A DNA stretch of 30,396 nt from Eledone cirrhosa. Taxonomy: Eukaryota. Shown here in pieces: positions 3,710 to 29,794 of this stretch. The DNA lies in the NCBI GenBank assembly GCA_964016885.1, contig CAXHJY010000288.1, positions 1-30,396 on the forward strand. Reading direction: 5' to 3'. How positions within the stretch are numbered: position 1 is the stretch's first letter; every line of letters begins with the position of its first letter. Both the position numbers and the translations under genes were made by a program. The notes beneath the pieces were generated by a model that was not told the DNA's origin, ran no database searches, and saw only the letters and a program-made list of their open reading frames with translations.

Positions 3710-3752
3710 ACGATGCTGACGATAGCTAATACGCTTGAAACTAGTACATCGT
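3710..3752 (+). ncRNA. Type I hammerhead ribozyme motif
   Basis: Stem I ACGAUG/CAUCGU, core CUGACGA (3716-3722), stem II U-AGC uaauac GCU-U, then GAAAC UA GUA^ with a palindromic stem III. Confidence 0.8.
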
Positions 3753-5663: not shown

Positions 5664-5709
5664 TGCTCTGATGAGTCCCACTTATAGTGCGGATGAAACA
5701 ATGTTAGCA
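5664..5709 (+). ncRNA. Type I hammerhead ribozyme motif
   Basis: UGCU CUGAUGA GUCC CACU uau AGUG c GGAU GAAAC AAU GUU^ AGCA. Stem I is extended by CUUUA/UAAAG. It lies in an approximately 210-bp island inside (TA)n. Confidence 0.8.
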
Positions 5710-5843: not shown

Positions 5844-5901
<58 letters not shown>

Positions 5902-5983
5902 GTTATTCCGGGTTGAATCGGAGGTAACCACAGTAAGTAAGGTACTCAATACATAGCAGAGTATAAAAGTTTTAATATAGATG

Positions 5984-6034
5984 AGATTCTACAGGACTAG
6001 AACTGTTTCATTCATTAGAAATCATCAGGAATCT
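5984..6034 (-). ncRNA. Type I hammerhead ribozyme motif within a dispersed repeat (relatives at 24620-24965 and 26474-26602)
   Basis: The minus strand reads AGAUUC CUGAUGA UUUC uaau GAAU GAAACAG uucuaguc CUGUA^ GAAUCU. Confidence 0.82.
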
Positions 6035-6109
6035 GGGTATCAAAAAATAAAAATGGTATTTATAGGTCTCTACAAGTGGTAGGAGAGGGTGGGGAGTGGG
6101 ATGGGTGTA

Positions 6110-6457
6110 GGTCATTGGTTGATAGAAAAGGGAATTCATTAAAAGCTAATTCTACAAAGCTATAGTTTATTTTTATTTATTTATGTTTTTAGAGTAACAA
6201 GGGCAGACAGAATTCTATAAACAGGTTCCGGATGGCATACCATACTTTGTCATTAAGTTTCTCTTAAGCTAACAGATGTCTATAAAATCAGTGGGGGGTC
6301 AGTCATGGTCGATAGAATTAAAGAAAAGGGAGATTCTTCAAATGCTAAAATCATTAAGGTTCTACCAAGTGACAAAGGTCTAGAGAATTCTGTAGACAGA
6401 TTCAAAATACTGAGTGCATATCTTACAATTATCTTCGAACTTCTCTTAAACTAATCA
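6110..6457. repeat. Old diverged tandem duplication (about 190-bp period)
   Basis: Collinear blocks GTCAT(T)GGT.GATAGAA, GAAAAGGGA, GAATTCT.TA.ACAG.TTC and TTCTCTTAA.CTAA each occur twice. Confidence 0.5.
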
Positions 6458-6479
6458 ACTATATGCCAAAAATCAACAG

Positions 6480-6615
6480 ACACATTCACAAAAAAACATA
6501 CTCACTCACACACTTACGCGCAACCATAAACACACACACAAACACATATACACACATAAAAACACACACATATATAAAAATATATTCATATACATACATA
6601 TACATACACACATAC

Positions 6616-6709
<94 letters not shown>

Positions 6710-7033
6710 ATATACACACACATATATATATATACACACATACACACACACATACACATATACACACACACATATATACACATATAAATACACTCACACA
6801 CATACATACAAACACAAATATACATGTGTATACATATACACACAAATACACACACACGTATACATATATATACATATATATACACATACATACATACACA
6901 CACATATACATATATATATATATATAAAAGAACACATACACACACAAATATACATATTCACACACATACACACAAACACACACACACATATATATACACA
7001 TACACATATACATATATTCATATATATAACCAT

Positions 7034-7064
<31 letters not shown>

Positions 7065-7193
7065 TACACATAAACAAATATATACACATACAAACACACA
7101 CACATACAAACACACATACAAACATACATATACACATATATATATATAAAAACATACATACATACATATATACACATATGTATATATATATAT

Positions 7194-7280
<87 letters not shown>

Positions 7281-7368
7281 CATATATATATACATACATA
7301 AACATACATACATACATATACACATATACACACACATACCCAAACACATATATACACATACACACACG

Positions 7369-7412
<44 letters not shown>

Positions 7413-7513
7413 CATATACACACACATATATATATACACGCACACACATATACACATATATATACACTCACACACACACACACATACACATGCATATGTA
7501 TAAATATTTATGT

Positions 7514-7544
<31 letters not shown>

Positions 7545-7659
7545 CATATATATATCCATATATATACAAACATACACATACATACACAGACCTATACATA
7601 AATATACACATATATATATATATATATACAGACATATAACGCATATATACACACATGTG

Positions 7660-7695
<36 letters not shown>

Positions 7696-7866
7696 CACAC
7701 GCATACACACATACACACACACACACACAAATATATATACACACTCTCTCTCACGCACATATATATATATATATATATACACATACACATATACACACAC
7801 ACACACACAAATATATATACACACTCTCTCTCACGCACATATATATATATATATATACACATACAC

Positions 7867-7915
<49 letters not shown>

Positions 7916-7928
7916 TATATACACATAT

Positions 7929-7979
<51 letters not shown>

Positions 7980-8071
7980 CATACACATATACACATACAT
8001 ATACATACATACATACACATACATACACACACACACACATATATATATATATACACACCTGCCCACACGAC

Positions 8072-8128
<57 letters not shown>

Positions 8129-8444
8129 ATATGTGTATGTATATATATGTATATATACATACACGTACATACATACATACATACATACACATACATACAC
8201 ATATATATATACACAGTTTAGGTATGATACATTTTATTACTAATTATATCTAAATGTTTCTTCTCCCTTCATAATGTATTTTTAACTCTGATACTGGTGC
8301 AGTCTGGTTCAAACTGAATTGGTCTGTCCCAGTCATTCATTGAGCAACATCGGTGAAGTTGGCACCCTTAACTCACAGTTGGGTGCGGATGCATTCATGT
8401 ATATATGTGTGTGTCCGCATGCATCTGTGTGTTTCTTAATATAA

Positions 8445-8481
<37 letters not shown>

Positions 8482-8490
8482 TACACACAT

Positions 8491-8571
<81 letters not shown>

Positions 8572-8682
8572 CATATACATATATATAACCACAAACATAT
8601 ATACATAAACATACATACATACATACATACACGTACATACATACATACATACATACATACACATACATACACATATATATAT

Positions 8683-8733
<51 letters not shown>

Positions 8734-8801
8734 CATATATACATACATATACATACATAAATATACACACATAAAACACATATACATACAAACATATATA
8801 T
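6480..8801. repeat. Very long compound (TA)/(CA)/(TACA) low-complexity array, interrupted by unique sequence at about 8215-8440
   Basis: Directly visible; it is the source of the spurious long YI/CV ORFs. Confidence 0.97.
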
Positions 8802-9096
8802 ATAAAAACAAATAACGAAACGAAATTAAATTTCGTTTCGTTTGTAACTCACTTTTGTATGACTGACGCTTAAACAATTAAGTTAAAAATGTACATCCAC
8901 ATATGTATACTGAAATACTAGTATGCATATGAATACACACACGTATACATATGTAGATGTACCGAGTTTTTCACTGGTCACTTTACTGTGAGTGTCCAGC
9001 TATTCTGTATGTAAACACACAGACAAACCGGTTTTTAGAGTCATACTGGTTTTTTAGGAAACACCTTTCCTCTATTCTCCAGAAAGCCAGACAAGG

Positions 9097-9141
9097 AATA
9101 TTGAACTAGTTTCGATGTTGTTACATCTCATCAGCAATATT
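9097..9141 (-). ncRNA. Type I hammerhead ribozyme, array copy 1
   Basis: Reverse complement of the motif at 9910-9954; TCATCAG at 9128-9134. Confidence 0.88.
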
Positions 9142-9562
9142 TACCTATCTTCCGGCCTCTCTAGAGAATCGTAAAAGCACATATCGTTATATGCTTTTTC
9201 TATCAAAATTAGTAGTGGGCAGACTAATTTGCATAGAGCGTGAGTACGTACCGGTTCAACGGAGACGATAAAAACAAATAACGAAACGAAATTAAATTTC
9301 GTTTCGTTTGTAACTCACTTTTGTATGACTGACGCTTAAACAATTAAGTTAAAAATGTACATCCACATATGTATACTGAAATACTAGTATGCATATGAAT
9401 ACACACACGTATACATATGTAGATGTACCGAGTTTTTCACTGGTCACTTTACTGTGAGTGTCCAGCTATTCTGTATGTAAACACACAGACAAACCGGTTT
9501 TTAGAGTCATACTGGTTTTTTAGGAAACACCTTTCCTCTATTCTCCAGAAAGCCAGACAAGG

Positions 9563-9607
9563 AATATTGAACTAGTTTCGATGTTGTTACATCTCATCAG
9601 CAATATT
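9563..9607 (-). ncRNA. Type I hammerhead ribozyme, array copy 2
   Basis: TCATCAG at 9594-9600. Confidence 0.88.
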
Positions 9608-9909
9608 TACCTATCTTCCGGCCTCTCTAGAGAATCGTAAAAGCACATATCGTTATATGCTTTTTCTATGAAAATTAGTAGTGGGCAGACTAATTTGCAT
9701 AGAGCGTGAGTACGTACCGGTTCAACGGAGACGATAAAAACAAATAACGAAACGAAATTAAATTTCGTTTCGTTTGTTTTTATCGTCTCCGTTGAACCGG
9801 TACGTACTCACGCTCTATGCAAATTAGTCTGCCCACTACTAATTTTCATAGAAAAAGCATATAACGATATGTGCTTTTACGATTCTCTAGAGAGGCCGGA
9901 AGATAGGTA

Positions 9910-9954
9910 AATATTGCTGATGAGATGTAACAACATCGAAACTAGTTCAATATT
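9910..9954 (+). ncRNA. Type I hammerhead ribozyme, array copy 3
   Basis: AAUAUUG CUGAUGA GAUGU aaca ACAUC GAAAC UA GUU^ CAAUAUU, with predicted cleavage after 9947. Stem I extends with bulges from about 9882 to 9977. Confidence 0.9.
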
Positions 9955-10375
9955 CCTTGTCTGGCTTTCTGGAGAATAGAGGAAAGGTGTTTCCTAAAAA
10001 ACCAGTATGACTCTAAAAACCGGTTTGTCTGTGTGTTTACATACAGAATAGCTGGACACTCACAGTAAAGTGACCAGTGAAAAACTCGGTACATCTACAT
10101 ATGTATACGTGTGTGTATTCATATGCATACTAGTATTTCAGTATACATATGTGGATGTACATTTTTAACTTAATTGTTTAAGCGTCAGTCATACAAAAGT
10201 GAGTTACAAACGAAACGAAATTTAATTTCGTTTCGTTATTTGTTTTTATCGTCTCCGTTGAACCGGTACGTACTCACGCTCTATGCAAATTAGTCTGCCC
10301 ACTACTAATTTTCATAGAAAAAGCATATAACGATATGTGCTTTTACGATTCTCTAGAGAGGCCGGAAGATAGGTA

Positions 10376-10420
10376 AATATTGCTGATGAGATGTAACAAC
10401 ATCGAAACTAGTTCAATATT
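10376..10420 (+). ncRNA. Type I hammerhead ribozyme, array copy 4
   Basis: CTGATGA at 10383; identical motif. Confidence 0.88.
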
Positions 10421-10841
10421 CCTTGTCTGGCTTTCTGGAGAATAGAGGAAAGGTGTTTCCTAAAAAACCAGTATGACTCTAAAAACCGGTTTGTCTGTGT
10501 GTTTACATACAGAATAGCTGGACACTCACAGTAAAGTGACCAGTGAAAAACTCGGTACATCTACATATGTATACGTGTGTGTATTCATATGCATACTAGT
10601 ATTTCAGTATACATATGTGGATGTACATTTTTAACTTAATTGTTTAAGCGTCAGTCATACAAAAGTGAGTTACAAACGAAACGAAATTTAATTTCGTTTC
10701 GTTATTTGTTTTTATCGTCTCCGTTGAACCGGTACGTACTCACGCTCTATGCAAATTAGTCTGCCCACTACTAATTTTCATAGAAAAAGCATATAACGAT
10801 ATGTGCTTTTACGATTCTCTAGAGAGGCCGGAAGATAGGTA

Positions 10842-10886
10842 AATATTGCTGATGAGATGTAACAACATCGAAACTAGTTCAATATT
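10842..10886 (+). ncRNA. Type I hammerhead ribozyme, array copy 5
   Basis: CTGATGA at 10849; identical motif. Confidence 0.88.
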
Positions 10887-11307
10887 CCTTGTCTGGTTTT
10901 CTGGAGAATAGAGGAAAGGTGTTTCCTAAAAAACCAGTATGACTCTAAAAACCGGTTTGTCTGTGTGTTTACATACAGAATAGCTGGACACTCACAGTAA
11001 AGTGACCAGTGAAAAACTCGGTACATCTACATATGTATACGTGTGTGTATTCATATGCATACTAGTATTTCAGTATACATATGTGGATGTACATTTTTAA
11101 CTTAATTGTTTAAGCGTCAGTCATACAAAAGTGAGTTACAAACGAAACGAAATTTAATTTCGTTTCGTTATTTGTTTTTATCGTCTCCGTTGAACCGGTA
11201 CGTACTCACGCTCTATGCAAATTAGTCTGCCCACTACTAATTTTCATAGAAAAAGCATATAACGATATGTGCTTTTACGATTCTCTAGAGAGGCCGGAAG
11301 ATAGGTA

Positions 11308-11352
11308 AATATTGCTGATGAGATGTAACAACATCGAAACTAGTTCAATATT
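11308..11352 (+). ncRNA. Type I hammerhead ribozyme, array copy 6
   Basis: CTGATGA at 11315; identical motif. Confidence 0.88.
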
Positions 11353-11773
11353 CCTTGTCTGGCTTTCTGGAGAATAGAGGAAAGGTGTTTCCTAAAAAAC
11401 CAGTATGACTCTAAAAACCGGTTTGTCTGTGTGTTTACATACAGAATAGCTGGACACTCACAGTAAAGTGACCAGTGAAAAACTCGGTACATCTACATAT
11501 GTATACGTGTGTGTATTCATATGCATACTAGTATTTCAGTATACATATGTGGATGTACATTTTTAACTTAATTGTTTAAGCGTCAGTCATACAAAAGTGA
11601 GTTACAAACGAAACGAAATTTAATTTCGTTTCGTTATTTGTTTTTATCGTCTCCGTTGAACCGGTACGTACTCACGCTCTATGCAAATTAGTCTGCCCAC
11701 TACTAATTTTCATAGAAAAAGCATATAACGATATGTGCTTTTACGATTCTCTAGAGAGGCCGGAAGATAGGTA

Positions 11774-11818
11774 AATATTGCTGATGAGATGTAACAACAT
11801 CGAAACTAGTTCAATATT
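11774..11818 (+). ncRNA. Type I hammerhead ribozyme, array copy 7
   Basis: CTGATGA at 11781; identical motif. Confidence 0.88.
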
Positions 11819-12036
11819 CCTTGTCTGGCTTTCTGGAGAATAGAGGAAAGGTGTTTCCTAAAAAACCAGTATGACTCTAAAAACCGGTTTGTCTGTGTGT
11901 TTACATACAGAATAGCTGGACACTCACAGTAAAGTGACCAGTGAAAAACTCGGTACATCTACATATGTATACGTGTGTGTATTCATATGCATACTAGTAT
12001 TTCAGTATACATATGTGGATGTACATTTTTAACTTA

Positions 12037-12078
<42 letters not shown>

Positions 12079-12298
12079 CACATACATATACACACATACA
12101 AACAAATATATACACATACAAATAAATAGGTACTCAATAAATATACGCATATACGCAGGCACATAAAGACACCTCTACAGGCAGAAAATGTAGATACGAA
12201 AGAGGTACTCACATAACCATAGTGGCCGTATTTCAGGTTGAGGAGGGGTGGGGGTAGGGTGGGGACGAGGTATAGGGGCCAATAGGGGGAGGTCGTTT

Positions 12299-12715
12299 TT
12301 AGCCATCGGGCTTTAACACTGGCTTAAAGTGTTTGAAAGTTGCAAAGTTCTTGTGCATGCAGTTCGGGCAGTGTTCAGAGAGTTTGTTCAGTAGCGGGCC
12401 CTTGGCGAATAAAATTTCGTAGCTCTCTGAAATACAAAGGTCGCAGCCCTTGTGTCCTCCTTTGTAAGAGCGCGCTTTCTGGAGTATTTTCCATTTAAGC
12501 GTGAAGGGGGTGGAGTTCCTTTTGAGGTCCCAAACGTAGGAGGCGAGTGTTGTCTGATTTGATTTATCCGGTCTTCTGAAGGAGTGGGTATGGGCATACC
12601 AACGGGTCTTAAAGTTGTTGGAGGTCATGCCGATGTAAGTTTTTTTGCAATCCTCGGTGCCTGAGATGACATCGCATTTGTATACGATGTCATTTGTGAG
12701 GCATTTGTTTTCAAG
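12299..12715 (-). mobile_element. 5'-truncated Penelope-like element: C-terminal GIY-YIG endonuclease, frame open
   Basis: Extending ORF 12299-12628 upstream gives LENKCLTNDIVYKCDV...KKTYIGMTSNNFKTRWYAH...LKWKIL...CDLCISE...LLNK..E...CMH. It has the IVY/YIG motifs plus the conserved R, H, E and N residues. (TA)n lies at the 5' junction. Confidence 0.88.
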
Positions 12716-12741
12716 TATATATATATATATATACCTTAGTT

Positions 12742-28596: not shown

Positions 28597-28670
28597 GTTG
28601 TTTGAGGATAATCTTCCATGTTGAGATATGCAAGATCTTTAGTGTATCTCGACATTTAGAAATATCATAT

Positions 28671-29065
28671 AATTGTTTCTACTTTTTGGCACAAGGCCAG
28701 CAATTACCCAGTGCATTACTGGTACTTTATTTTATCGACCCCGTATGGATGAAAGGCAAAGTTAACCTCGGCAGGATTCGAACTCAGAATGGCAAGGGCC
28801 GTAACTCTATGCGTCAAAGCATAGCGTCCGACCCTCTACCGATACTGCCAATCCACCGTATTTAGAAATATCATATAATTGTTTCTACTTATGGCACAAG
28901 GCCAGCAATTACCCAGTGCATTACTGGTACTTTACTTTATCGACCCCGTAAGGATGAAAGGCAAAGTTAACCTCGGCGGGATTTGAACTCAGGACATAAA
29001 GAGACGTAACTCTTTGCTATAAAGCATGTTGTCCGACGCTCTACTGATACTGGCAATCCACCAAC
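28671..29065 (-). mobile_element. Two tandem SINE copies (28671-28858, 28877-29065)
   Basis: Both are near full length. ATTTAGAAATATCATAT is duplicated at 28654-28670 and 28860-28876. Confidence 0.88.
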
Positions 29066-29313: not shown

Positions 29314-29794
29314 GGTTTCTAATTTAAGCACAAGGCCAGCAATTTGGGTGAGAGGAAAGTCGATTAAATCGGCTCCAGTGTATTACGGTGAAGGCGCATG
29401 GCTTAGTGGTTAGAGCATTAGGCTTGCAATCGAAAGGTTGTGAGTTCAATTCTCGGACCGAGTGATGTGTTGTTTCCTTGAGCAAGACACTTTATTTCAC
29501 GTTGCTCCAGTTTACTCAGCTGTAGAAATGAGATGATAGGACTGAGGTCCCTATCATTAAATCACCCAAGACACCTCCAACGAGATATACCTTGGAGGAG
29601 GCAGCTAAACCTGCATAGGTGTGAGTTGTAACAACAACAACAAGTGTATTACTGGTACTTTATTTTATCAACCCCGTAAGGATGAAAGATAAAGCTAACC
29701 TCGGCGGGATTTGGACTCAGAACCTAAAGGGCCGTAATTCTATGCCGTGAAGTATGGCGTCCGGCGTTCTACCGATTACTGCCAATCAACCGCC
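29314..29794 (-). mobile_element. SINE copy split by a nested insertion
   Basis: Halves 29314-29386 and 29643-29794 rejoin at AGTGTATTAC. Confidence 0.85.
29387..29642 (+). mobile_element. tRNA-derived CORE-like SINE with (CAA)n tail and 10-bp TSD
   Basis: A box TGGCTTAGTGG, B box GAGTTCAATTC, CORE-like CCTTGAGCAAGACACTT...CTGTAGAAATG, and TSD AGTGTATTAC at 29377-29386 and 29643-29652. Confidence 0.85.

Follow-up and report, generated by a model that had tools for sequence, protein, structure and literature searches.

The array at positions 8802 to 12038 of the Eledone cirrhosa contig CAXHJY010000288.1 (assembly GCA_964016885.1), within the 30,396-nucleotide stretch of DNA analysed here (the window), is built of units that each carry a hammerhead ribozyme. 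It raises the question whether such a locus is a copy of a mobile, self-cleaving RNA and, if so, what kind of template it was written from. We addressed this by comparing the array with its relatives across the assembly and with described systems.

Layout of the array and its ribozymes

The array has a repeat period of 466 bp, with only two period mismatches inside its arms (at 9204 and 10897), and its seven hammerhead cores are identical (CTGATGAG-ATGT-AACA-ACATC-GAAAC-TA-GTT). No stop-to-stop open reading frame of 90 amino acids or more lies within it, and (AT)n flanks it at both ends. The sequence-only reading, which had described about seven nearly identical, non-coding 466-bp units inserted in a microsatellite, was thus borne out on all of these points. 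The units form two opposite arms placed head-to-head inside the (AT)n: the minus strand holds about 2.1 units and the plus strand 4.9. We numbered the unit from the predicted cut, so that unit position 1 is window position 9948; unit counts of arrays are those of the assembly. The left arm (8802..9777, minus strand, 2.09 units) runs from an inner 5′ end at unit position 259 to an outer 3′ end at unit position 302, the long end (...TTTGTTTTTAT), which is joined to (AT)n. The right arm (9773..12038, plus strand, 4.86 units) runs from about unit position 292 to an outer 3′ end at unit position 227, the short end (...TTAACTTAAT), which is joined to C(AT)n. The head-to-head junction (9746..9777) spans a perfect 13-bp hairpin of the unit (unit positions 262-290) and includes 5 nt of microhomology, TTTGT, at 9773-9777.

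On the plus strand, a type I hammerhead lies at 9899..9970, with its predicted cut after 9947, and further copies occupy 10365-10436, 10831-10902, 11297-11368 and 11763-11834, with predicted cuts after 10413, 10879, 11345 and 11811. The minus arm carries two, at 9547..9618 and 9081-9152, whose cores read from 9600 to 9575 and from 9134 to 9109. Since the two hammerheads of the minus arm and the five of the plus arm point in opposite directions, seven monomers cannot come from one single transcript. The Rfam model HH9 matched 7 of 7 cores (36.5-37.3 bits, E 4e-7 to 8e-7), below its gathering score; an Rfam search at the gathering threshold (score 52) returned no hammerhead. These matches agree with the earlier claim that each unit holds a complete type I hammerhead.

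The cleavage-to-cleavage monomer (9948..10413, plus strand, 466 nt) is predicted to be highly self-paired, with helix I joining its two ends (−159.9 kcal/mol; z = −11 against 100 shuffles). Compensatory changes were found in 20 of 87 predicted pairs, helices I and II included, among nine units of three related families; as the nine units come from related sequences, this covariation is worth about three independent lineages. The core was intact in 407 of 417 cases in the fetched loci. Helix III is the palindrome ACUAGU and has one or two pairs only. In this it resembles newt satellite 2 and axolotl HHR_Amex1, in which helix III is one pair under a palindromic tetraloop (here A-CUAG-U), an arrangement that predicts dimeric cleavage, although the sequence is different and the unit is larger. 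Hammerheads with this type of weak helix III are reported to act as dimers in amphibians (PMC7229834). In the vertebrate survey (10.64898/2026.07.22.740005), 8 of 9 predicted Xenopus retrozyme dimers gave no cleavage in vitro. The predicted cleavage triplet is GUU in the window copies. In the fetched loci, the triplet at unit position 466 is GUU for the most part; a subfamily, with about 67 of 423 junctions, has GUC, and activity may differ between the two.

A dispersed family with two fixed 3′ ends

The exact 29-nt ribozyme core occurs 2,607 times in the 3.0-Gb assembly, and a motif common to this family and two sister families, with units of about 472-538 nt and 421-430 nt, has 27,655 matches. 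With at least that many motif matches, the three related families amount to a sizeable mobile fraction of the genome. More than 70 loci were examined, and each had precise ends and flanks of its own. The median number of substitutions between units was 1.1 within an arm, 1.25 between the two arms of one insertion and 10.4 between loci (25 loci, 212 units). The dispersal rules out a single-locus satellite as an account of the 466-nt family. The sequence-only reading had placed the unit at the long end of the range for such elements, but 466 nt falls inside the 51-972 bp given in the published survey (10.64898/2026.07.22.740005).

Sister retrozyme cores or loci were seen at window position 3716 (plus strand) and at L071, L082, L087 and L108-L126; their helix II has a U-U pair at its base, their triplet is GUA, they contain an internal (AT)n hairpin, and in the loci inspected they end at the same homologous two 3′ sites. 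Two arrays of the 466-nt family are long, with about 70 units at G000:C1:81846871-81880712 (L053-L057) and about 19 at C1:375634779-375643976, and have higher-order patterns with a period of 3-4 or more, showing later DNA-level expansion towards a satellite. In five sequencing runs of unknown kind, one unit-length contig (495-496 nt) was found in two, a result that tandem DNA or a circle would give alike.

We then compared the ends of the insertions. In a first set of loci, picked for their similarity or in the order in which they lie on C1, 89 of 94 outer ends fell at two positions, a long-end cluster at unit positions 289-302 (n = 49, 41 of them exactly at 302) and a short-end cluster at 215-233 (n = 40). 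Nearly all outer ends are joined to (AT)n, and one locus lies within (CAT)n. The 39 head-to-head pairs of this set comprised 33 with one long and one short end, one with two long ends, and five with a disrupted end, which were left out; a second set, picked by an A>G mark, gave 13 long-short and one long-long pair, and a third addition gave three long-short pairs. Altogether, 49 of 51 intact two-armed insertions combine a long with a short end, the other two have long ends on both arms, and the short-short combination is absent (p = 6e-13). Both long-long insertions (L034 and L137) are composites, the outer part of one arm having a different haplotype. In these two loci, two unit haplotypes are joined in register, as if a second copy had entered an existing array.

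The inner ends behave differently from the outer ones. They are distributed uniformly round the unit and show no concentration at the cut site (7 of 106 within 10 nt of it; 4.8 expected). Arms are longer than one unit in 74 of 106 cases. Arms overlap by 1-12 nt at 31 of 53 junctions, and nine of the 53 have a near-palindromic sequence, against 3.5 expected (p = 0.008). Of 423 cleavage junctions, 421 are in register; only two have an indel. A fixed difference between the arms of one insertion was absent in 22 of 23 loci, and when we asked whether both arms begin in one and the same template unit, a shift of zero came out best or tied for best in 5 of 13 informative loci. The prediction of dispersed arrays with permuted starts thus held for the dispersal and not for the permutation, as randomness is confined to the inner 5′ ends, the 3′ ends lying at two fixed positions.

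This layout is the one described for insertions of Penelope-like elements (PLEs). PLEs form partial tandems, carry an inverted 5′-truncated copy with a tail at one end only, and use (TA)n targets (PMC8557442); here, the inverted truncated copy and one-sided tail are seen in 49 of 51 insertions, and the (TA)n target is shared. The tail of PLEs has been explained by two internal start sites, both target strands being cut and extended, and a PLE dimer has been predicted (PMC11167929). Read after that model, the stretch of about 70-75 nt between the two putative reverse transcription start sites (unit positions 227-233 and 302) would be the tail, at window 10175..10249 on the plus strand. The head-to-head layout and the two fixed 3′ ends, neither of which the sequence-only reading had noted, are the strongest evidence for a retrozyme mobilised by a PLE. 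The units are tandem and non-coding, each with a complete type I hammerhead; the family is dispersed, multicopy and recently mobile; and the monomer is stably self-paired, with a conserved structure. We are therefore highly confident that the element is a real, young, PLE-type non-LTR retrozyme that belongs to an already known class. The earlier proposal of a non-LTR retrozyme moved by a PLE is supported by the dispersal, the covarying ribozyme stems and the PLE insertion signature.

A>G marks and the template

Clustered A>G changes in double-stranded RNA are the signature of ADAR editing. In three loci, each on a different background, A>G changes cluster on the sense strand: 5 at L038, 7 at L148 and 12 at L149. 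Wherever there is coverage, they are the same in both arms and in successive units. At L038, the five changes (in RNA sense) lie in one hairpin and are present in every covered unit of both arms, and this five-change haplotype had no second occurrence in the assembly. Six of the changes at L148 recur in both units of one arm, and all seven are found in both arms; at L149, nine are found in both arms and four recur in two successive units. A genome-wide pattern that required two L038-type changes matched 11 units at five loci, each locus with its own combination, while the mirror T>C pattern had no match genome-wide. The single change A273G had 241 matches, against three for its mirror, although much of this count is an inherited subfamily. 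The hot-spot hairpin for A>G in other copies (unit positions 259-278) corresponds to 10206..10237 on the plus strand of the window, where it is unedited.

Changes shared by a whole insertion differ from those confined to single units. In 39 well-covered loci, A>G made up 18 of 32 insertion-wide changes and T>C five (p = 0.011), with the search motif and three divergent loci left out, the latter only after data inspection; with these three loci included, the numbers were 27 of 80 and 17 (p = 0.17), and in the loci not chosen by edits, 10 of 21 and four (p = 0.18). Unit-specific changes had no A>G excess (20 of 246, against 28 T>C). The contrast between the insertion-wide and unit-specific classes was strong (18/32 against 20/246, p = 6e-10) and persisted when the divergent loci were kept (27/80 against 20/246, p = 1.4e-7). 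Insertion-wide A>G sites are paired in the predicted fold in 25 of 29 cases, compared with 60% of all As; a shortage of 5′ G at the edited sites was weak (13 distinct sites, p = 0.09). Two of three array-wide marks failed privacy tests: 147C was rejected because it marks a subfamily of 335 units, and 342G because it is present in 72 units at many loci. Single A>G marks are often inherited subfamily markers, and the assembly may lack the parent alleles of the hyper-edited loci.

From these marks we infer that the template was sense RNA and that one edited monomer gave rise to several units and to both arms. An ADAR-edited sense monomer that was read repeatedly would fit the marks, a circle most simply, because 421 of 423 cleavage junctions are in register. 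The suggestion that the array is a product of rolling-circle reverse transcription thereby gains genomic support in the A>G marks repeated unit by unit and in both arms; the composites and the patterns of period 2-4 speak against it as the whole story. Given such patterns in several arrays, DNA-level duplication or multimeric templates must also occur.

How far could the array have been multiplied at the DNA level instead? One edited monomer might have been reverse-transcribed once, its tandem and inverted copies then arising in DNA through rolling of a cDNA minicircle, self-priming by fold-back or later unequal exchange, or they might come from template jumps on a linear monomer that left no scar. 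Such copying accounts equally well for the identical marks, would produce the higher-order patterns of the long arrays and agrees with the near-palindromic junctions; the shorter arm of each hyper-edited locus (L038, L148, L149) could be a DNA copy of the longer, and one arm is a possible copy of the other in 37 of 45 insertions. The remaining 8 of the 45 fit neither fold-back order, including L134 and L139, which have A>G changes that the two arms share; there is no regular excess in length of either the long-end or the short-end arm (18 of 32); and in the window, the 976-nt long-end arm cannot have self-primed the 2,266-nt arm. DNA-level copying and template jumps also have to explain why so few cleavage junctions carry an indel. 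Self-priming on an antisense template has been proposed for head-to-head PLEs (PMC3846280), but this version conflicts with the sense-strand marks, which argue against antisense self-priming for the 466-nt family. We consider DNA-level multiplication unlikely, while giving it some weight.

An account in which the ribozyme and any circles are bystanders keeps the PLE but takes as its template a linear, uncleaved, multimeric read-through transcript of a homogeneous array. It draws on PMC11167929, which reports PLE insertion in vitro with no need of hammerhead cleavage and uncleaved RNA as the dominant substrate, and on the weak helix III, the arrays with haplotype patterns of period 2-4, the two composites and the many array-wide variants that are subfamily markers. 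Independent editing of the units of such a transcript predicts unit-specific A>G, but the singletons show no A>G excess, and the multi-edit haplotypes repeat exactly with no second locus in the assembly; we regard this template as improbable. Very improbable indeed is a single-locus satellite, an assembly expansion or a locally amplified remnant of PLE terminal repeats. The window is a 30-kb contig, and local amplification of PLE terminal repeats has been proposed (10.64898/2026.07.22.740005), but the exact cores are spread genome-wide over loci with their own flanks and precise ends, stems covary across three families, and the one PLE terminal repeat compared is not similar to the unit.

The mechanism that we favour, copying of a monomeric RNA by a PLE, would start with multimeric transcripts that self-cleave, probably as ribozyme dimers. 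The monomers would be ligated into 466-nt circles, whose hairpins ADAR may edit. A PLE reverse transcriptase-endonuclease, of the Hydra type or another (TA)n-targeting PLE of the same genome, would nick both strands of an (AT)n tract, with each nicked strand priming at one of two fixed start sites that lie about 70 nt from each other. The template, a single monomeric RNA of the sense strand and most likely circular, would be copied for repeated rounds, and the two cDNAs would stop at random points and be joined by short microhomology. We think that this scheme as a whole, with (AT)n nicking and PLE copying of a sense monomer, likely a circle, from two start sites, is probably right. For the sharper version, in which a single ADAR-edited circular RNA was primed by both nicked strands at the two adjacent sites and read round by a PLE dimer, so that the genome keeps the record of one molecule, we lean only slightly towards acceptance.

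If this version is true, retrozyme arrays are cDNAs made by rolling-circle copying, and twin priming on one sense RNA, not antisense self-priming, is what generally gives PLE insertions their inverted copy and one-sided tail. Retrozyme circles have been described in coral, mussel and axolotl, with PLE copying into tandem cDNA proposed without a test (PMC7229834), and circles as PLE templates are so far a hypothesis only in those parts of the retrozyme literature that we compared. The editing marks would act as natural barcodes on single template molecules, showing template strand, monomer repetition and arm linkage; thousands of loci in the assembly are open to the same analysis, and the mapping of the two start sites allows exact predictions for an in vitro assay. 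In the full-text literature searched, a scope that places most subscription journals, Repbase and Dfam outside, we found no report of the 466-nt family or of editing marks used to infer a template.

The host PLE and related systems

The array sits in the internal (AT)n of a 5′-truncated Hydra-type PLE (5896..12716, minus strand), of which the GIY-YIG end of the open reading frame lies at 12299-12716 (minus strand) and its own hammerhead core starts at 6028. This host family is very abundant and young, with many intact open reading frames (for example, the intact copy at L069:3292-5568); its members are 4.7-5.5 kb long, with a long internal (AT)-rich tract, and so exceed the <3 kb described for the Hydra clade in the relevant section of PMC8557442. 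The L069 copy has an RWK-like motif, DKT, a CxCx5C linker and, at the C terminus, a GIY-YIG with CxxC and CxH; these motifs, together with the hammerhead and the (TA)n target, agree with the Hydra clade of section 11 of that paper, an assignment by motifs. In ten readable pairs of ends of the intact Hydra-type PLE, scored by eye after two ambiguous loci were set aside, the long-short rule holds again, with a tail of 64-68 nt in (AT)n. A protein search with the PLE protein gave 1,172 relatives at about 40% identity, with uninformative names. The Hydra-type PLE is a plausible mobilising partner.

Derivation of the unit from the terminal repeat of this PLE was rejected: in a comparison with this one abundant family, similarity did not exceed that of shuffles (127/300), and only AT-rich or shuffle-level matches were found. 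The similar-looking hairpin that both elements have near the long end (CTCCG...CCGG...CGTAC) is only a lead; in the unit it lies on one side of the end and in the PLE on the other.

Among described systems, the element resembles metazoan non-LTR retrozymes in its non-coding tandem units with one type I hammerhead each, its GC content below 50%, its highly paired predicted circle and its co-existence with PLEs. It differs from the tested invertebrate circles, which are given as 170-400 nt, in its 466-nt unit; the head-to-head arms, fixed double 3′ ends and editing marks are features not described for metazoan retrozymes in the compared sections of PMC7229834 and of the survey, which links its vertebrate units to PLE terminal repeats (10.64898/2026.07.22.740005). 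With Hydra-clade PLEs (PMC8557442) and PAc (PMC11167929), it shares the partial tandems, the inverted 5′-truncated copy, the one-end tail, the two start sites and the (TA)n target; unlike them, its array unit has no open reading frame, and its tail is about 70 nt, compared with 30-40 nt. Chlamys MRC1-type elements are likewise non-autonomous PLE passengers, often in multicopy head-to-tail insertions, but they share 3′ sequence with their partners and mostly lack hammerheads, according to the section on them in PMC8557442. An LTR (plant) retrozyme was rejected, since the topology is type I and the units are tandem, as opposed to type III hammerheads in two LTRs that flank a central region.

The genome contains several further hammerhead-bearing families whose paired ends lie in (AT)n. 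In the window, hammerhead-like cores of at least four other repeat families were seen at 5668 (plus), 5230 (minus), 25453 (minus), 26830 (minus) and 4686 (plus)/4674 (minus). In several of these families there are two end positions in (AT)n, separated by about 90-100 nt, which suggests further PLE families with longer tails. A short non-microsatellite piece (8212-8439), located between the array and the 3′ part of the host PLE, has high depth in the run contigs and is probably a repeat fragment. A two-copy 205-bp repeat at 28654-29062 and a weak tRNA-like match at 29399-29456 (29.2 bits) are both probably of SINE type.
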